IMG/VR virus record: IMGVR_UViG_3300032167_000004
Coordinates: 160,001-224,000 of that record
DNA from: a virus
Lineage: Duplodnaviria > Caudoviricetes
Strand: one strand, 5' to 3'
DNA length: 64,000 nucleotides
Positions 1,077 to 30,716 of this stretch are shown piece by piece (within the stretch, counting starts at the first letter, position 1; every line of letters begins with the position of its first letter). Position numbers and translations under genes: made by a program. The notes under the pieces are model-generated. The model had not been told where the DNA came from. It saw nothing but the letters and a program-made list of their open reading frames with translations, and made no database searches.

Positions 1077-2037
1077 CTTATATGTTTAAATAAGTTTGTA
1101 ATTCTTATCCCTTTAAATTTTAAAGCTCTATATTACTATAGAGAACAGACTATATCATCAACCTATATACTGTTACCATATATAGGTTGCTCTCCATTTC
1201 CATCTTACAATTAAGATGTACTCTACTCAGTTACTCTCATAAGTATTTCTCTTATGATACCTTTTCGATAGTCGTTGAACCTTCCTTATATTTATTTACA
1301 ATATTAGGGTGTCGATCCCCTTTTCTTAAATGAGTTATTAAAGCTGTTAATCTAGTGTTATCTTGATCAATATATTTATCTAAAATATAACACTTTATAT
1401 AATCATTTTTGTATTTATATACATATATCATTTGACATAGTTCATCAATAAAATCATCACTATATAGTTTGTTACCTCCACCATTACTATGATAACCATT
1501 TTCAACAGCATCCATTTGGTTTAAGTAATTATTACTCCATTCTAGATTTTCATAATAATTTTCTAGTGAATCATTATTACGATGATGTACAAAATCAAAT
1601 TCATCAGGGTTAGGATTGGGAACAAATTCCCAAGCAACTAATCTATGTATATTAACATCAACATATTTTCGCTTTTTATCAACTTTATCAGACTTTATTA
1701 ATACTACTTGCAAATATGATCTAGTTTGACCATTATCTCTAACTTGAGTTTTTATTGCAGGTTTTAGTATTTTCTTTGTCTTTTTACTATAAACTCTACC
1801 ATGATTACTAATTAAATATGTATTAGGTTTAACAGTAGGGTATGTGACATATTTCCATACTTCAGGTAATTTTATGAAAATATATAACATTTTTATATCA
1901 TCTCCTTTCATTTAATATTTTTTCGACATTTATAATTTATAAAATATAAGGCTTGGCTGCTGATTATCCATATAGGATGTTCCAGCAATTAAGAGAGTTT
2001 TCTGTATATATTACATATACAGGGACTAGTTAATTTA
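1077..2037 (-). mobile_element. Group I intron in gyrA carrying an HNH homing endonuclease
   Basis: Core elements AATTGCTGGAA, AATCAGCAGCC, TTCAACGACTA and GATATAGTC. P1 pairs exon GGAU with GUCC (U.G at the splice site); terminal G at 1077. Splicing restores ...FGIG-Y-GLST... Confidence 0.93.
1252..1890 (-). CDS. Intron-encoded NUMOD4/HNH homing endonuclease
   Basis: EVWK..YLISNHGRV (NUMOD4) and HRLVAWEF.PNP...VHH.N.....N...NLEW (HNH). AAGGAG RBS favours the ATG at 1890. The 3' end (EGSTTIEKVS) overlaps intron element R. Confidence 0.9.
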   Translation of the reverse strand: MLYIFIKLPEVWKYVTYPTVKPNTYLISNHGRVYSKKTKKILKPAIKTQVRDNGQTRSYLQVVLIKSDKVDKKRKYVDVNIHRLVAWEFVPNPNPDEFDFVHHRNNDSLENYYENLEWSNNYLNQMDAVENGYHSNGGGNKLYSDDFIDELCQMIYVYKYKNDYIKCYILDKYIDQDNTRLTALITHLRKGDRHPNIVNKYKEGSTTIEKVS

Positions 2038-2596
2038 ATCCAATTCCAAATGTATTATTAATCATCACATTAGGATATTTAGCAGGTAAATATTCCGGCT
2101 CAACCATAGTTCCTAAATAATTTAATTTAGTATTGACAATTTTATCGTTATATTCTTCGAAGAAACATTTATACGCATAATGTGTAAGTTTAGCTTCAAT
2201 ATATCGACCATCGGCAGCAGGAGCACCTGCAGGATCACCAAAGTTACCATAACCATATATAGTACATTGAATATTATTCCAAGGTTGAGCTAATTTTACT
2301 AATGTATCTTCTACAGCAGAATCACCGTGAGGATGATAATTTAATACATTACCTACAATACTTTTAACTTTTGTGGTTTCTCCATCATATTTTAAACCCA
2401 TCTTATACATGGTATAAAGAATTCTTCTTTCACCAGGTTTTAAACCATCTACGACAACTGGAATGTGTCGAACAAGATTTGTATTAGCACCAAAAATTTG
2501 CATATAAGATGAACATGCATCTGCAATATTAACAGTTTCTATATTAGAACTATAAGTTTCTACACTTACTTTATTATTTTTATTTTTTTCCTTCAT
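2038..2596 (-). CDS. gyrA: DNA gyrase/topoisomerase II subunit A, exon 1
   Basis: DGLKPGERRILY, YHPHGDSA, GNFG, catalytic RY and LPAKYPN..IN..FGIG motifs. Confidence 0.93.
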
Positions 2597-2703
2597 ATTT
2601 AATATTCACCTCATTAAATATATTACTTACATATAGTTTTGTTGAATTAGAAATATCTTTCTAATTGACTATATTAATAATATATATTTAAAAAGAATTA
2701 TAA

Positions 2704-2739
2704 AAAAAGAAAGTGGTAAATAAATACCACTTTCTTTTT
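2704..2739. terminator. Intrinsic terminator-like hairpin
   Basis: AAAGAAAGTGGTA/TACCACTTTCTTT inverted repeat with A/T tails, downstream of the DHH gene. Confidence 0.7.
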
Positions 2740-2748
2740 ATAGATTAA

Positions 2749-3786
2749 TTACTTATTTCTCATTTCACCATATACAGAAGACATTTGAACTTTTTCAGGA
2801 GGTGCTTCCTCACACATTCTAAGTCCAAAGATATCTTCTACCATGTACTTAGAAAGTCTTTCAGGGAATACAAAACCTGCACTAAGAGGATGTCCACCAC
2901 CCTTAGGACTAAAGGTCTTTGCAATCTCAGCAAGATTAACATTAGCTTCTTCAATAGCTCTCAAAGAAACTACTGAAGTATCAGGGTTAATAATTGCAGC
3001 AAACTTAATATCTTTTACATTCTTAGCAATATAATTACCAAGCTCAGAGATATAATTTTCTGCAAATACATAAGCAATATTGTATGCACCAAGATTCAGA
3101 ATTTTTACGTTACTCATCTTTTGATTAATGTAACGCTTTTTTCTATTCTCTTCAAGTTCAATAATTTCACATTCACCAGGACTAATATATTCATAACTAA
3201 ATGCATCCAATCGATGAGTAATGATTTTACTAAACCTTTTAGTTCCGAAAATGCCGAAAATAGTATTTAAATTCTTAGCATAAATACCGTCTTCACCATT
3301 CTTGGTCCAATCCCAGGTATCCCAAAGACGTACATATTCAATATATCCATTAATTACTTTTTCTTTTTCGAAGTTTGTTTCATCGTCCCAGTTGAAATAA
3401 TAATCCTTTAAATGCAACCAGAACAGTTCTGCACCACAAGTTTTACGATTACCGTAAGACTCACGTACAATCGCCCATTCATATTTACTATTTACGTAAT
3501 TAGATCTATGATGGTCTAACATTCTAAATTTATACTTATTAACTTCATCAATAAGCTTACCGGTAGCTTCTTTGATTACCAAATCAGTAATAAATACTTT
3601 ATTAAACTTCAAGTATTCATCACTTTTAATAAACTCATTGATCTGGGTATCAACATCTTTAGGAGTACAGTATGTAATATCTACATTATCCCCAAAGATT
3701 ACAGTTGCGAGAATACCACAACTAATACCATCCAGATCACTGTCGGTAAATAACTTAATACGCTCATTATTGCTCATAGTTTTCAT
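2749..3786 (-). CDS. DHH/DHHA1 family phosphoesterase
   Basis: DxDLDG, ITDL, LDHH and GGGHPLSAG motifs. Confidence 0.88.
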   Translation of the reverse strand: MKTMSNNERIKLFTDSDLDGISCGILATVIFGDNVDITYCTPKDVDTQINEFIKSDEYLKFNKVFITDLVIKEATGKLIDEVNKYKFRMLDHHRSNYVNSKYEWAIVRESYGNRKTCGAELFWLHLKDYYFNWDDETNFEKEKVINGYIEYVRLWDTWDWTKNGEDGIYAKNLNTIFGIFGTKRFSKIITHRLDAFSYEYISPGECEIIELEENRKKRYINQKMSNVKILNLGAYNIAYVFAENYISELGNYIAKNVKDIKFAAIINPDTSVVSLRAIEEANVNLAEIAKTFSPKGGGHPLSAGFVFPERLSKYMVEDIFGLRMCEEAPPEKVQMSSVYGEMRNK

Positions 3787-20208: not shown

Positions 20209-21099
20209 TCATTTTCTTTTGGAAATTTCATTCATAAATTGTGCTTGTGCGGTGCAAATTTGCTGTAAAGGAATATTCATAGTGGTAGATAGTTTACAGC
20301 TATCCAATTTAGTAAAGAGCTTCTTATCGTTCAAAGATAAATTGATAAGTTTTTTAGCTGCAAATTTAGAGTATACTTTGGTGCCATATTTATTTGTACT
20401 AACAATTTTGAAAGGTTTAGATTCAGGTTCCTTATTTTCAATTTCATCTTTGTTAGAAGTTTCAGATTCATTTTTAAGTATACGTTTCCACCGATATGCT
20501 GTACTTACAGCAATATTAAATTTTTTGGCGATTTGTTGAATGTCGGAATCGATAATAAATTTCTTATCATCATCGCTTAAAGTATTAATATTTAAACGCG
20601 GCTTTTTATCAGAGGATACAGTAGTTATACTGTCTTCTTTCTTAGGAGTAGGTTTATTGATAGTTTCTGGAGGAGAAGTCTTTTCAGAAATAGAGATAAT
20701 TTTATCTGTACTATATTTGAAATATTTAGCCTCCATTTCTAAGTTGTTTTCTAAACCTAAATAAATTTTAAGAGCAAGATCAATTTCGTCCATAACTCTT
20801 TCGGTTAAACATCCTAAGAAATTCGTTAATGATGATGCTGGTACTGGACGAATTTCATGTACAAGTGCAGTTGATAATTTATTCAATTCTAAATTAACAC
20901 ATACACCACTCTTTTGCGATTCAGATGCCGAGAATGGAATTACCGTAACAAATTTTCCTCGAACATTGACATTATTAATAACCAAAACTGGTCTATCTCC
21001 AATAGTTATTTGCATGTCTCTTTCATCATGAGTCCAGCTATCTTTCATTAACCACACTTGACCTTTTTTATAAGTTAAAAGATCTAATTTCTTACACAT
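20209..21099 (-). CDS. PemK/MazF-like domain fused to a C-terminal HTH region
   Basis: KGQVW...RPVLVINN...VTVIPFS...IRPV...LG.L....M.EID.AL.I.LGL, then IQQIAKKFNIAVSTAYRW. Confidence 0.72.
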   Translation of the reverse strand: MCKKLDLLTYKKGQVWLMKDSWTHDERDMQITIGDRPVLVINNVNVRGKFVTVIPFSASESQKSGVCVNLELNKLSTALVHEIRPVPASSLTNFLGCLTERVMDEIDLALKIYLGLENNLEMEAKYFKYSTDKIISISEKTSPPETINKPTPKKEDSITTVSSDKKPRLNINTLSDDDKKFIIDSDIQQIAKKFNIAVSTAYRWKRILKNESETSNKDEIENKEPESKPFKIVSTNKYGTKVYSKFAAKKLINLSLNDKKLFTKLDSCKLSTTMNIPLQQICTAQAQFMNEISKRK

Positions 21100-21579: not shown

Positions 21580-21756
21580 ATGTCTAATAAAGAAGAATTC
21601 AATATTGTTACCGAGGTTGGTGTCTTTGGTGATTTAAACATCGATGACCCTACTGTTAAATCTGTAAAGAAAAAGAATAATACCAACTATACTGATGAAG
21701 AAATTGAAACTCTGATTAGAGAATCTATTAATAGTAATGCTAATATTACTATCTAA
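21580..21756 (+). CDS. Small hypothetical protein (58 aa, not in the ORF track)
   Basis: AACA-N6-TA at 21543 and AAGGA RBS; MSNKEEFNIVTEVG... Confidence 0.6.
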   Translation: MSNKEEFNIVTEVGVFGDLNIDDPTVKSVKKKNNTNYTDEEIETLIRESINSNANITI

Positions 21757-21854
21757 AAATCAAAAGATTATTTAAATATATATTATTTAAATAAGAAATA
21801 GTAATTAATTACTTACTATTTGAAAATATTTTTATTAATGAAGGAGAAATAATA

Positions 21855-21879
21855 ATGATTAAAATTTGTACTCTTGGCT
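21855..21879 (+). CDS. Tubulin/FtsZ-family (PhuZ/TubZ-like) protein, exon 1
   Basis: AAGGAG RBS; MIKICTLG plus one T joins exon 2 to give MIKICTLGFGNCGGQI (tubulin T1 loop). Confidence 0.88.
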
Positions 21880-22159
21880 TAATAATATAGGCCCTATACA
21901 TAGTGATATGTATAGCAAACTCTCTTAATTGCTGGAAACTCCTTAGAGCCTAAAGTACCAAAGTGTAAAAATCTTTAGGATTGGACAATCAGCAGCCAAG
22001 ACTCTTATTGTAAGAGTAAGGTTCAACGATCATACCCTTAAGTAAAGGGATAATAGAGAGCATCTTTATTTTAAAGATGATGATATGATCTGTGCTCTAT
22101 AGAAATATAGAGAACTTCGTCTGTATTAACTAGCTAATAGTTTTATCTTCTTTTTCAAA

Positions 22160-22169
22160 TATATATTAT
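22160..22169 (+). promoter_or_regulatory. Phage early-type promoter motif TATATATTAT inside the intron, upstream of tnpB (one of about 18 intergenic copies)
   Basis: Also on + at 21777, 26783, 28325, 31263, 32314, 36719, 37506, 45298, 47409, 48937 and on - at 2677, 3818, 7687, 20145, 21179, 56103, 56948, each oriented toward a downstream gene. Confidence 0.75.
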
Positions 22170-22207
22170 TTATTTAATATTTATATAAAGAAAGGAGGAT
22201 AAATCTT

Positions 22208-23446
22208 ATGTATAGAACTTTTAAACGTCAACTAATTAATTTATCTGAAGAAGATAAACAGTATTTATTCGATAATATGTGGTATAGACATCAACTATAC
22301 AACTTAGGTATTGAATGTATATTAGATTATCGTAAAGAGAATCCTAAATTACCTAGCAGTACATTATTATATCACATGATGAAAGAAAAAATATCTGATA
22401 AGTATAATAAAAATTATTATGCTGAAGGTATTGAGAGTGTTGTACGTGTTGATATATCTAGAGCAATTCGAAATACATATAATAATTATAAAAAATATGA
22501 TGATATTTCTGAACAATTTAGATTTCATCGATTTAATAAATATTATAGAAGTTTCGGATTTAGTGCTAGATCATATATTTCTTATGGTAAAATGAGTTCT
22601 AGAGTTAAATCTATGACTAATAATTCTATCACTATTCGTTTTAGAAAAGGTATTATTAAAACTTTTTATCATAATGAATTATCATGGAATAATAAGAATC
22701 ATCCTTATGAATTTGATATGTATGATGTAAAAGAGATCCATTTTCTATATGATCATGGTAAATTCTATATCATTCTCATGTGTGAGGTTAATTTTAAAAA
22801 TCCTTATAGATATAGAGATGATAGAATGAATCTTGCAGGTATTGATTTAGGAGAAAGAAATCCAGCGATGATATATGACGGTAAAGAATATATCAAGGTT
22901 AAGTTTCCTGATAAGAAGATTAAAAATATTCAAAACAGAATTAATGTTATGAATATAGCCTTATCAGGAAAAGTATATGGATCTAATAACTATTATAAGC
23001 TTAAAAATAAAATAGATAAGCTTTATAGAAAACAGGTTAATATACGTAAAGACTGGAGACATCAGAATTCTTATAAGATAACTAATTTATTTAAGACTAT
23101 AGTTGTAGATGAATTCCATAATTATATTATTACTAAAGATTCTAAAGAAAATATTAATAGTAAAGGAAAAAGAATTATTAATAGAGTAATGGAAGGTAGA
23201 GGTATATCTTATTTTATTGAAACATTAAAAGATATGTCAAATAAATATCGATGTGGATATTATTTAGCAGAACCTAATACCACTAGAACTTGCTCTAAAT
23301 GCGGTTTTATTAATGATCCAATACCTTTAAGTCAAGAATATTTAGTATGCGATAATTGTGGAAAGAAAATTCATCGAGATAAGAATGCTGCAAAGAATTG
23401 TTATAATCAACATAAGAGATATTATCATATTAATGTGTATATCTAA
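22208..23446 (+). CDS. tnpB: TnpB (IS200/IS605/IS607 OrfB) RNA-guided nuclease homologue
   Basis: N-terminal R.LYN helix, RuvC-I GIDLG, RuvC-II region IVVDEF, TTRTCSKCG...CDNCG zinc finger, RuvC-III HRD.NAA.N. Confidence 0.9.
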   Translation: MYRTFKRQLINLSEEDKQYLFDNMWYRHQLYNLGIECILDYRKENPKLPSSTLLYHMMKEKISDKYNKNYYAEGIESVVRVDISRAIRNTYNNYKKYDDISEQFRFHRFNKYYRSFGFSARSYISYGKMSSRVKSMTNNSITIRFRKGIIKTFYHNELSWNNKNHPYEFDMYDVKEIHFLYDHGKFYIILMCEVNFKNPYRYRDDRMNLAGIDLGERNPAMIYDGKEYIKVKFPDKKIKNIQNRINVMNIALSGKVYGSNNYYKLKNKIDKLYRKQVNIRKDWRHQNSYKITNLFKTIVVDEFHNYIITKDSKENINSKGKRIINRVMEGRGISYFIETLKDMSNKYRCGYYLAEPNTTRTCSKCGFINDPIPLSQEYLVCDNCGKKIHRDKNAAKNCYNQHKRYYHINVYI

Positions 23447-23536
23447 AAGTTGAATATAATGTAGCGTATAGGTTGATGCGTAATAGCTAGTTAAAAGAAG
23501 TTGTATTAGAGTAACGATCTAATATAAACACAACAG

Positions 23537-24642
23537 TTGGTAATTGTGGTGGTCAGATCACTGATCTGGCAATGGAACAGTATCAGATTCCTGGTATTGC
23601 AATCAATAGCTCTCAGAAAGATTTAGATAATATTACAAATGTTACTAAGTTTGTTTTGGGTGATTCTCTTGGTAGTGGAAAGAATAGAGATGTAGCAAAA
23701 AACTTTATTAAGAAGCATGTATCTGTTATGCTTCAGCAAGATAAACTTAATAGTATGATTAGTGAAAATGATATTGTTTTCATTATTTCTTCTATTGGTG
23801 GTGGTACCGGTTCTGGTATGGCTCCGATTACTTGTGATATTCTTTCAAGAAAATATCCTGAAAAGAGATTTATTCTTATTGAAGTTTATCCTCCTATTGG
23901 TGAGTCTCTTGCTGCACAGCAGAATAGTCTTGACTATCTTAAGGAAGTAAATAATAATATGCCCAATGTATGTTACATTGCATATGATAATAATAAGTAT
24001 ACTGATCTTACAACTCCTGAAATGATGCAGAAAGTAAACAATGAAATTGTTGATATGCTTCCTGTATTTAGAGGAGACTATTTCTATTCCACTCCTTTCA
24101 ATTCTATTGATGATAAGGATCTTCTGAGTATTGTTGGTACTCCTGGACGTATGGCTGTGTATATTCTTGATAATATTAAAGAAAAAGATTTCGATAATAA
24201 ATCTATTGAAGATGCTATGATCGATATTATTAAGAATAAGTCTGCTAACGTCGAACTTGATCGTGATAAGATTGTTAAGAAAATTGGTATTGTAACGAAT
24301 TTGAATACTAAACTTAATAAACTTATCGATCCCAATTATTCTAAGATTCAAGAATTAGTCGGTACTCCTATTGAATTATTTGAGCATGTATATATGACAA
24401 GTTCTGATAATGAAACTAATAGAATGATTCTTATTCTGGCTGGTTTATCTGTTCCTGATGACAGATTAACAAAGATGGTTCAGCGTATTGAATCTGGTTT
24501 GGAAGAACTTGCACATACTAAGGAATCTTCTGTATTGGGCAATACAGACACTGTCAGCATGGTTAAAGACCTGAGATCTAATAATATGCAGCAGAGCAGT
24601 GAATTTAGCCTCGAAGAACTTTTTGGTAAGTATGATAGCTAA
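23537..24642 (+). CDS. Tubulin/FtsZ-family protein, exon 2 (376 aa after splicing)
   Basis: GNCGGQI, AINS, GSGKNR and the GGGTGSG signature. Confidence 0.9.
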
Positions 24643-28709: not shown

Positions 28710-30482
28710 ATGAGCACACTTAATCTTAAAGAAGCATTAGAGCAAAAAGAAAAAGAATATAGTTTCTGTGATGATTTGTTTGGTATGACATTACTTACAA
28801 ATCCAGGATACATTAGTTCTAGTAGATCTCTAATGTTTACTAGTCATCTTAGACAGTTTGTTAATCTTGTCAATCCTGATATTCCTAAAGTATTTACTAA
28901 CTATGAAAATAGCGTTGGTAAATTATCTACAGGATATTATGAAGCAAAGCATAATTATGAAGTATATGCAAAAATTCCTAGATTTACAACAGAAGGATTA
29001 GATAATCATCTTTATTTGATGTTTATTTATGATAAGAAACATGATAAATATGATGTAATTACAAAAAGTGTTGTAGAAAATCTAACAGAAAAGTTTGGAT
29101 ATGGATATAATACTGAAGTAATGGATAATAAAGATGTTGGTGATGAAATTGATAAAGGAGAAGTTCTTTATAGATCAACATCTTATGATGAAGATATGAA
29201 CTATCGTTATGGTACAAATGTTAAAGTTATGTATGCATTAGATAATAACACGATTGAAGATGCTATCATTTGTTCCGAATCCTTTGCTAAAAGACTTGTT
29301 AGTAAAGAGATTGAAGAGGTTAAAGTTAGTCTTAATGACAATGACTTACTTTGTAATATCTATGGTGATAGTTCTAATTATAAAACTTTCCCTGATATTG
29401 GTGAATACACAAAAGATAAAATTCTTTGTGCAAAGCGTCGTATTCATAATAGTCAGGTTTTATATGATTTGAAGAAATCTAATCTTAGAAAGATTAATTT
29501 TATGAATGATAACTTATATTATATTGATGGTAAGATTGTTGATATAGTTATCTATTCAAATAAAACATTGGATGAAATTCCTGATAATACTTTTAATAAT
29601 CAAATTAGAAAATATCTAATTATGCAAAATGAATTTTATCAAAAAGTATATGACACTTGTAAAGAGATTATTAAAAGTGGTAGTAAGTATAGTAATGATA
29701 TTGCTTATTATTTTAAGAAAGCAAAAGATATATTAGATGAAAATACTAAATGGAGAGAAGAATCCTCTGTATTTAGTAATATTGTTATTGAATTTCTTGT
29801 TGAAAGAGATTCACCTCTTACTATTGGACAAAAGATTTCTGGACGACAGGGTAATAAGGGTGTCGTAAGTAAAATTTTACCAGATGATCAAATGCCATAT
29901 CTTGAAAATGGGGAAAAGGTAGAAGTGATTTTAAATAGTTTGGGTGTAATCAACAGACTCAACCCTATGCAGATATACGAGCTTAGCATTAATTTTATCT
30001 GTAATCGAGTTGTAGATAAATTAAAAACTTATACTACACTAAAAGAAAAAGAAACATTATTCTTTGATATTATTAAACGATTCAATGAAGATGAAGAGAA
30101 AGTATTAAAGATTTATTATAAAAATTTAAAGACTAAAGAAAAGAAAGAATTCTTTGAAGATATCTTTAAGAATGGTATTTATATTCATATGCGTCCTTTC
30201 TGGGAAGAAAAAGAAGCATTATTTGATATCATTAGAGATATTTATAAAGATTATGATTTTATTAAACCTGTTGATGTTTATATTAATAAATGGGGTAGAA
30301 AGATTAAGATTATGAAACCTTTGATTGTTAGTGATCTTTATATGATTAAACTGAAGCAATCTTCTAAGAAAGGTTTCTCTGCAAGATCTACAGGTTCTCT
30401 TAATAGAAGAGGTATTCCTGATAAGAGTTATAAGAATAAAGTTCATCAAGATCTGTATTCTAGCACACCGATACGCATCGGC
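28710..30482 (+). CDS. Phage multisubunit RNA polymerase beta, C-terminal part, exon 1
   Basis: R.LM...[44 protein letters not shown] and PIRIG motifs. Confidence 0.92.
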
Positions 30483-30716
30483 TTGATCGAGAACCGATGT
30501 AAAACTCTCTTAATTGCTGGAAAATCCTTATAGGACAATCAGCAGCCAAGACTTATTTTAGTAAGTAAGGTTCAACGACTATAAAAATTATAAATATAAT
30601 TTTAATGGAGAGCTTCTTATAAAAAGAATGAAGATATAGTCTAATCTATATAGATAATATATAGTAGTTATTAAGTTAACAGTATAGAATTAATCATTCT
30701 ATATGAATATATAATG
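30483..30716 (+). ncRNA. ORF-less group I intron (~234 nt) in the RNAP beta gene
   Basis: Same core elements as the other two introns; splicing gives PIRIG-DQE (RpoB RFGEME region). Boundaries are uncertain by 1 nt. Confidence 0.88.

Follow-up and report, generated by a model that had tools for sequence, protein, structure and literature searches.

A putative phage-type promoter inside an IStron of an AR9-like jumbo phage may yield tnpB mRNA and guide RNA from a transcript that cannot splice

Introduction

How can an intron that splices itself out of its host gene also supply an intact guide RNA to the nuclease that it encodes? In IStrons, the guide spans the intron-exon junction, and guide function and splicing are therefore mutually exclusive for any one transcript (bioRxiv 10.1101/2023.11.20.567912); the competition between the two that the preliminary description of the present locus presupposed is thus as published. 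The published model has one full-length transcript with two fates, the balance between them being set by guide-RNA structure and TnpB binding (bioRxiv 10.1101/2023.11.20.567912). If an element has its own promoter, the conflict is partly removed at the level of transcription. Here, we analyze an IStron in the tubulin gene of an uncultured phage, in which a promoter-like motif lies between the ribozyme and tnpB. The window, that is, the whole stretch of DNA that was analyzed, is 64,000 nt long.

The phage and its interrupted tubulin gene

The viral contig that contains the window is 165.8 kb long, with an estimated completeness of 67% and a G+C content of 28.8% (27% in the window alone). It encodes several features of the jumbo-phage type: a split multisubunit RNA polymerase (RNAP), tubulin, an NAD-dependent ligase, gyrase B, and a DnaB-like helicase. 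Because its RNAP beta ORF is 39% identical to g089 of AR9/PBS1, which encodes the C-terminal subunit of the non-virion RNAP beta, we regard the phage as an uncultured relative of the AR9/PBS1 group; its nearest cultured relative is Bacillus phage AR9. The tubulin gene is split into two exons:

21855..21879, + strand: tubulin exon 1 (25 nt), encoding MIKICTLG and the first base of the next codon
23537..24642, + strand: tubulin exon 2, with the junction placed by restoration of the reading frame; its first ~16-20 nt are presumed to be the TnpB guide

Joining 21879 to 23537 rebuilds the reading frame and gives a tubulin of 376 aa that is collinear with, and 58% identical to, the uninterrupted tubulin of a syntenic relative, L015 (N-terminus compared). 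The 3' end of exon 1, U21879, is the U of the U.G pair in P1 (GGCU with GGCC).

Architecture of the IStron

The sequence between the exons comprises a ribozyme, a single large ORF, and a structured 3' end:

21880..23536, + strand: IStron, 1,657 nt (group I intron, tnpB, and structured 3' end)
21870..22112, + strand: group I ribozyme core, P1 to P9 (Rfam RF00028, Intron_gpI, full model)
22208..23446, + strand: tnpB, 412 aa, with Pfam domains OrfB_IS605 (PF01385) and Cas12f1-like_TNB (PF07282, zinc ribbon)
23504..23524, + strand: covarying hairpin with a conserved TAACGA-type loop and compensatory changes in six sequences
23525..23536, + strand: conserved 3' tail, 12 nt, nearly invariant among related elements; its terminal G23536 is the 3' splice site

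The intron surfaced only when 311 nt were scanned against Rfam, having been missed by a whole-window scan at the gathering threshold and by a 2-kb scan by E-value. The match to RF00028 extends over the full model (positions 1-253 of 253) and scores 83.4 bits (E = 4.9e-22), against a gathering score of 50; the core resembles the introns of AR9 and PBS1. The match ends at 22112, and the promoter-like motif does lie downstream of the whole ribozyme core, as had been proposed. The earlier assignment of tnpB is likewise borne out by the two Pfam domains. The ORF is intact and conserved, and its product can be aligned to ISDra2 TnpB structures; it carries a CxxC...CxxC zinc ribbon and the RuvC residues D213, D301, and D391, the second being an Asp in RuvC-II instead of the usual Glu. 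No tnpA and no second ORF are present within 21880-23536, which makes the element a tnpA-less IStron. Elements that have only ORF B are among the IStrons already listed (PMC4227781).

At least 24 contigs carry the identical TnpB, each time within the same tubulin setting, and the protein is also encoded on a contig of 264 kb. The nearest distinct TnpBs, which were traced to their own contigs, are 57-30% identical to it (42-57% in related cassettes with a retained motif). The related cassettes have the same ribozyme type and reside in different host genes, and their exon 2 sequences all differ. Insertion was always after G-N-T, mostly GAT, and affects no fewer than six genes; in each cassette, P1 has a guide sequence changed to fit the cassette's own exon. 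Because ribozyme, tnpB, and tail occur jointly in different genes with P1 matched to each exon, we take them to be mobile as one unit.

The putative 3' scaffold region, with its two covarying hairpins and conserved tail, matched no known guide-RNA model. The tail ends in ACAG and probably marks both where the element ends on the right and where the guide-RNA scaffold stops. The conserved tail and the insertion of the whole element after G-N-T favor exon 2 as the guide.

A promoter motif in the phage genome

Two promoter-like sites, one inside the IStron and one upstream of the tubulin gene, bear on how the element may be transcribed:

22157..22176, + strand: internal promoter-like site, AAA-TATATATTAT-TTATT-T-A, with the predicted start at A22176
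21774..21793, + strand: tubulin promoter-like site, a full match to AAR-TATATATTAT-N5-T-R, with the predicted start at A21793

The preliminary description had placed the motif and an AAGGAGG ribosome-binding site directly before tnpB and a second copy of the motif at the tubulin gene, and both placements are correct. The internal TATATATTAT core occupies 22160-22169 on the + strand, and the Shine-Dalgarno sequence AAGGAGG is at 22192-22198, 9 nt 5' of the tnpB start codon (ATG, 22208); the predicted start lies 32 nt upstream of this codon. The core of the tubulin site, at 21777-21786 on the + strand, is 69 nt 5' of the tubulin ATG at 21855.

That the motif is genome-wide, as had been claimed, is evident from its counts. 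The window contains 25 copies of TATATATTAT, compared with 5.5 +/- 2.2 expected from dinucleotide shuffles (shuffle maximum, 12), and the whole contig contains 44. Although intergenic DNA amounts to only ~9% of the contig, 38 of the 44 copies are intergenic, and 31 have a co-oriented start codon no more than 120 nt away. Alignment of all copies revealed conserved flanks (AA at -2/-1, R at 0, T at +16, and a purine at +17), giving an extended 20-nt consensus, AAR-TATATATTAT-N5-T-R, that is matched in full 25 times in the contig, whereas reversing the pattern gives no match. The internal site is one of the 25 and fits all 15 informative positions; the tubulin site matches the consensus equally well. 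Counted from the final purine of the consensus, the next start codon is mostly 14-80 nt away, and the predicted +1 base in this genome is A in 26 cases and G in 13. The motif precedes genes for replication and transcription (ligase, helicase, an RNAP subunit), tubulin, and many small genes, and it precedes no gene of the structural block (the first ~50-52 kb, with large genes). These patterns support the view that the motif behaves as a class-specific phage promoter.

The early promoter of AR9, mapped by dRNA-seq and primer extension, is AAATATATATTAT-(6N)-G+1; it is read without new protein synthesis and was attributed on that ground to the virion RNAP (PMC5312081). The consensus found here is identical to this AR9 core, AAATATATATTAT (PMC5312081). 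By analogy, we infer that 22157-22176 is an early-class promoter of the AR9 type, read by a virion RNAP. Against an AR9-type reading, the virion RNAP of AR9 is reportedly sensitive to single deviations from the consensus, and the +1 base, a mapped G in AR9, is a predicted A at the tnpB site, although A is the commoner base at this position in the present genome. The polymerase is assigned by analogy only, because no virion RNAP genes were found in the 166-kb, 67%-complete fragment, where only the homologue of the non-virion beta (AR9 g089) was matched. In the same fragment, Pfam Rpb2_6 had one match and Rpb1_2 had none, and tblastn with fragments of AR9 g189 gave no clear match. A sigma-70 promoter at the tnpB site was also considered and rejected: a consensus scan lists no -35/-10 pair between 22140 and 22180, and the region has just as many hits as shuffled sequence leads one to expect.

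The internal site in related cassettes

The preliminary description had also named the absence of the motif from homologous cassettes as grounds for refutation. The motif is not absent from them, being exact in two of the six nearest distinct cassettes and present as a variant in two. Between P9 and tnpB, the motif is as follows:

L007: exact
L008/L015: exact
L004: last base (position 10) changed to A
L005: last base (position 10) changed to A
L006: diverged
L009/L010: diverged
L011: diverged
L013: diverged

Divergence is thus seen in two cassettes among the six nearest and in two that are more distant. In the syntenic phage L015, six copies of the motif occur within 11.4 kb, all six preceding genes, and five of them, the tnpB copy included, are followed by AC, a variant that is rare in the genome studied here. 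In L004, a TATATATTAA-TATA variant is common to the copy in the IStron and the only further promoter-like site of the contig. Thus, the cassette variants agree with the promoters of the phage in which each cassette resides, which argues for reading the motif as a promoter; the co-variation involves one (L004) to five (L015) resident sites. On this reading, a mobile element would be adapting to a host that has its own, non-bacterial promoter code.

A search with the single TnpB among viral contigs returned no relatives, and a search with the clade alignment returned only distant TnpBs of no more than 32% identity, which were used as negative controls. The motif is missing from these six distinct distant IStrons, which belong to phages of other types. 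It is also missing on the sense strand before the inserts of the three other introns of the contig (endonuclease-type or ORF-less, two of them with endonuclease-like ORFs). Separately, a candidate antisense RNA in the terL intron of the contig had no match in Rfam.

A hairpin around the tnpB Shine-Dalgarno sequence

The internal site is enclosed by two complementary arms:

22142..22155, + strand: 5' arm of the hairpin, a pyrimidine tract of 14 nt (anti-Shine-Dalgarno) upstream of the predicted start
22190..22203, + strand: 3' arm of the hairpin, which contains AAGGAGG (22192-22198) and pairs with 22142-22155

The promoter-like site and the predicted start A22176 sit in the loop. When folded as a single sequence and compared with shuffles, the 76-nt hairpin region has a minimum free energy of -16.8 kcal/mol (z = -3.4), and when the same region is folded from 22176, the energy is -1.6 kcal/mol and the structure is gone. 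As a within-genome control, we computed how strongly the 35 nt 5' of the motif pair with the Shine-Dalgarno region for all 25 promoter-gene pairs in the contig that could be assigned to a Shine-Dalgarno-like site and an ORF. With -14.9 kcal/mol (next best, -7.9; median, -4.1), the tnpB hairpin is an outlier among them.

The hairpin is present in eight of nine distinct cassettes (z = -3.4 to -10.1) and missing only in L008. The Shine-Dalgarno sequence of L007 is altered to GAAAAGAGG and stands opposite a matching CTCTTTTC. RNAalifold found no consensus fold for the promoter region, where MAFFT had left the shifted arms unaligned; the evidence for the hairpin comes from single-sequence folds with shuffles and from the within-genome control. 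Motif and hairpin do not always go together: L008/L015 has kept the motif and is missing the hairpin, and L006, L009/L010, L011, and L013 have kept the hairpin where the exact motif has diverged. The hairpin could therefore serve a role independent of this promoter.

The last observation touches on a different reading, in which the AT-rich element is no promoter at all and is kept as the loop and inner stem of a tnpB translation hairpin, or else belongs to the periphery of the intron, and resembles the phage motif only through its AT-rich composition. It would account for a hairpin that is more widely conserved than the exact motif, and the loop sequences do form small inner stems in several cassettes. 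It fits poorly, however, with a site that agrees with the consensus at every informative position when the reversed control has no match in 166 kb, and with variants that, in L004 and L015, recur at further promoter-like sites of the respective contig. Moreover, a permanently closed hairpin over the Shine-Dalgarno sequence would lead to poor tnpB expression, yet the ORF is intact and conserved. We consider this reading very unlikely. The promoter reading of the site, in turn, is well supported by comparison and by the experimental precedent in AR9.

A long-range helix around the promoter and tnpB

A second, longer-range pairing links the sequence just after P9 to the sequence just after tnpB:

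22113..22136, + strand: 5' strand of a P9.1-like helix, just after P9, complementary to 23484-23502
23484..23502, + strand: 3' strand of the P9.1-like helix, just after tnpB

L004, L005, L006, L008, L010, and L011 each have a counterpart of this helix, 13-26 bp long, whose sequence differs and thus covaries. Because this helix flanks both the promoter and tnpB, both lie in the loop of a peripheral helix of the intron. A transcript that begins at 22176 lacks the 5' strand, so that its 3' strand would be available to fold differently.

One could also suppose that an older intron without an ORF received the tnpB cassette as a separate, IS-like insert in its P9.1 loop, bracketed by TAATAG, with a guide that is intronic and no conflict with splicing. 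The direct repeat TAATAG is indeed present at 22135 and 23481, and deletion between the repeats leaves a perfect hairpin, just as the P9.1-like helix predicts. However, the TAATAG junctions are not conserved among relatives; the best conserved noncoding block is instead the 12-nt tail before the 3' splice site, and ribozyme, tnpB, and 3' end move jointly into at least six genes, always after G-N-T. Nor does the position of the ORF call for a separate insertion, as intron ORFs are normally placed in the loop of a peripheral helix. Of the explanations weighed here, this one appears to us the least probable, and we continue with the promoter inside an IStron that moves as a whole.

Two transcripts from one element

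If both sites are active, the element would give rise to two kinds of RNA. The long transcript would start at the tubulin promoter (predicted start, 21793) and contain the 5' splice site, the ribozyme, both strands of the P9.1-like helix, and the hairpin that buries the Shine-Dalgarno sequence (22142-22155/22190-22203). It would fold as an intron and splice to give tubulin mRNA, and tnpB would be poorly translated from it. The short transcript would start at about A22176, in the loop of the hairpin, and would lack the 5' splice site, the P1-P9 ribozyme, the 5' strand of P9.1, and the anti-Shine-Dalgarno sequence. The preliminary description had noted that a transcript from this point lacks the 5' splice site and the core, which follows necessarily from a start downstream of P1-P9. 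Such an RNA could not splice, and its ribosome-binding site would be free. There is no terminator-like site in 21700-23700, so the short transcript should cross tnpB and the 3' scaffold and reach exon 2. Unspliceable, with a free ribosome-binding site, and reading into exon 2, it would serve as tnpB mRNA and as a guide precursor with an intact scaffold-guide junction.

What the preliminary description proposed on this basis, a separation of guide-RNA production from splicing by an internal promoter, gains two supports in the Shine-Dalgarno hairpin and the P9.1-like helix, both of which need sequence upstream of A22176. The separation would be physical, through two transcripts, rather than temporal, since tubulin and tnpB share one promoter class.

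A real internal promoter might also have been selected only for the expression of TnpB, with the guide coming mainly from the long pre-mRNA and any relief of the conflict being a side effect or negligible. The T4 and AR9 intron ORFs discussed below have the same promoter and hairpin design without any guide RNA, and published work on IStrons explains the balance of splicing and guide on a single transcript; both are in keeping with such a view. What weakens it is that, for want of a terminator, any transcript from 22176 carries the scaffold and exon 2, and that TnpB has been reported to process its guide from its own mRNA, which makes a short transcript that yields no guide RNA hard to envisage. 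We judge it unlikely.

We regard as probable, with some room for doubt, the explanation as a whole: a working early-class promoter at 22157-22176 inside the IStron, a long RNA that splices, and a short RNA that is both tnpB mRNA and guide precursor. The nuclease and its guide RNA are thus probably made from a separate transcript that cannot be spliced, and this internal transcript may be the main source of functional guide RNA. The comparisons establish the sequence features with their statistics, conservation, and co-variation; from these, we infer promoter activity, the start site, the polymerase, the exon-2 guide, and the relative share of the two transcripts; the functional consequence follows if the promoter is active.

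Comparison with known systems

The closest precedent for the promoter is in AR9 itself, where an early promoter has been verified for g190, an HNH endonuclease gene inside the g189 intron (Lavysh et al. 2017, PMC5312081). We located this promoter in the P6 loop of the g189 intron. The two phages are related, with RNAP beta identity as given above, and their intron cores are similar. In both, the promoter has the core AAATATATATTAT with a start, predicted in the present case, 6-7 nt downstream, and lies within a group I intron, directly 5' of the intron ORF. The position differs, being mid-ribozyme in AR9 and after P9, in the P9.1-like loop, here. The AR9 ORF is a protein-only homing endonuclease that uses no guide RNA, whereas the ORF here is TnpB, and the AR9 host gene and ORF differ in timing (late and early, respectively), whereas both promoters here are of one class.

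The hairpin has its counterpart in T4. In the intron endonuclease genes of T4, an inhibitory structure forms on read-through transcripts only, and the internal promoter starts too far downstream to take in the inhibitory strand (PMC2988022). As in T4, the Shine-Dalgarno sequence of the intron ORF here can pair with sequence that would be found only in read-through transcripts, and the promoter is so placed that its own transcripts would lack the inhibitory strand. Promoter type and polymerase are different, however, and the cargo here is TnpB with a guide RNA that would span the 3' splice site. The T4 host gene and intron ORF also differ in promoter timing, whereas here we saw no sign of temporal separation or of autorepression as in T4, 21774-21793 and 22157-22176 matching the same consensus.

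As references for IStrons, we used the group A elements of the CdISt1 type (IS200/IS605) and the IS607-type CboIStron (Tourasse et al. 2014, PMC4227781; Zedaveinyte et al., bioRxiv 10.1101/2023.11.20.567912; NAR 2026, PMC13521648). Like these, the element described here has a group I ribozyme at its 5' end, carries tnpB behind it, and closes with a structured 3' end directly adjoining the 3' splice site; it is inserted after a short target ending in (G)AT, has CAG at its 3' end, and is expected to have guide and splicing compete. It differs in lacking tnpA and in residing in lytic AR9-like jumbo phages, and its TnpB clade shares only ~25-30% identity with other phage TnpBs. The literature searched describes no IStron that has an internal promoter of the phage type set in a hairpin.

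On the one hand, both IStrons and intron-internal promoters with hairpins that sequester the ribosome-binding site are known already. On the other hand, the combination of a promoter of the phage-polymerase type with a guide-RNA cargo appears, from the sequences compared, to be new. A broader proposal would be that a lineage of TnpB introns in AR9-like jumbo phages resolves the conflict between splicing and guide by two promoters, a T4-like hairpin switch, and the helix, with the promoter co-evolving with the resident phage; we put this forward tentatively, our confidence falling a little short of even. If the element does carry its own promoter, this would provide a simple design rule for RNA-guided intron homing between co-infecting phages. 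Apart from the IStron, the 20-nt consensus supplies 25 candidates for early promoters in this uncultured jumbo phage of the AR9 type.

Ribozyme insertion sites and TnpB in related cassettes

Six insertions could be compared at their 5' junctions: the IStron in the tubulin gene of the window and five on other contigs (L005, L007, L009, L011 and L013). All six are preceded by G-N-T, which is GAT in four of them, and the P1 internal guide sequence (window positions 21880-21900) differs from one insertion to the next, pairing in each case with its own exon 1. In L007 (positions 1963-3400), it is a polyphosphate kinase gene that harbours the ribozyme, together with an exact copy of the early-promoter motif, the hairpin that sequesters the Shine-Dalgarno sequence, and tnpB. 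The 3' hairpin and the 3' tail, both otherwise conserved, are missing from this cassette, which continues into unrelated sequence that begins like a tRNA. Either the copy has decayed or the assembly is chimeric.

The proteins of the TnpB clade (11 members) share invariant RuvC-I and RuvC-III aspartates and four invariant zinc-ribbon cysteines. At RuvC-II, all 11 have an invariant aspartate in place of the usual glutamate (VVD-x-F, TnpB residues 300-303, encoded by the gene at 22208-23446).

Six metagenomic contigs with related tnpB genes (L004, L006, L008, L010, L012 and L014) have their 5' ends 100-210 nt upstream of tnpB, so that the breaks fall inside the ribozyme or just after it. Breaks at this position would be expected where a genome has several similar intron cores that disrupt assembly.

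Group I introns of the viral contig

Searches with nhmmer identified group I introns with related cores at five or more sites in the 165.8-kb contig that contains the window (genome C1), among them the following:

Group I introns matched by nhmmer
Window ~1126-2036, minus strand, group I intron
Window 30460-30664, plus strand, group I intron
Genome C1 138790-139790, minus strand, group I intron
Genome C1 137914-138449, minus strand, group I intron

The first of these carries a 219-aa ORF (1252-1911, minus strand) within its P6 loop, and no early-promoter motif is found upstream of this ORF. The group I intron at 21870-22112 (83 bits) escaped Rfam both when the entire 64-kb window was scanned at the gathering threshold and in an E-value scan of 2 kb; it was recovered only from a separate scan restricted to 311 nt. 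Further introns may go undetected in long Rfam scans in the same way.

Outside the window, PHROG matches of the flanking ORFs show that two group I introns interrupt the terminase large subunit gene (C1 136741-140515, minus strand; stretch L058), and one of the two contains an endonuclease-like ORF. We also observed a full-consensus early promoter within the second intron on the opposite strand (C1 ~138050-138350, plus strand; stretch L018). It is directed into approximately 300 nt of G+C-richer sequence ending in a hairpin and a T-run. This stretch, in which neither an ORF reaching 60 aa nor an Rfam match is present, is a candidate for an antisense or other non-coding RNA.

Internal promoters in distant IStrons

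In distant phage IStrons of the IS607 type (on the viral contigs L035, L037, of 185,683 bp, and L041/L043), the interval from the ribozyme to the transposon genes contains a near-perfect sigma-70 promoter, for example:

Sigma-70 promoters
L035, TTGACA-17-TATAAT
L041, TTGACA-17-TATCAT; the spacer contains a palindrome

IStrons in general may have internal promoters, of a type that matches the host.

Neighbourhood of the tubulin gene

On the strand opposite to the tubulin gene, and two genes upstream of it, lies a 296-aa ORF (window 20209-21099, minus strand) with a precomputed Pfam match to PemK_toxin in the identical contigs.
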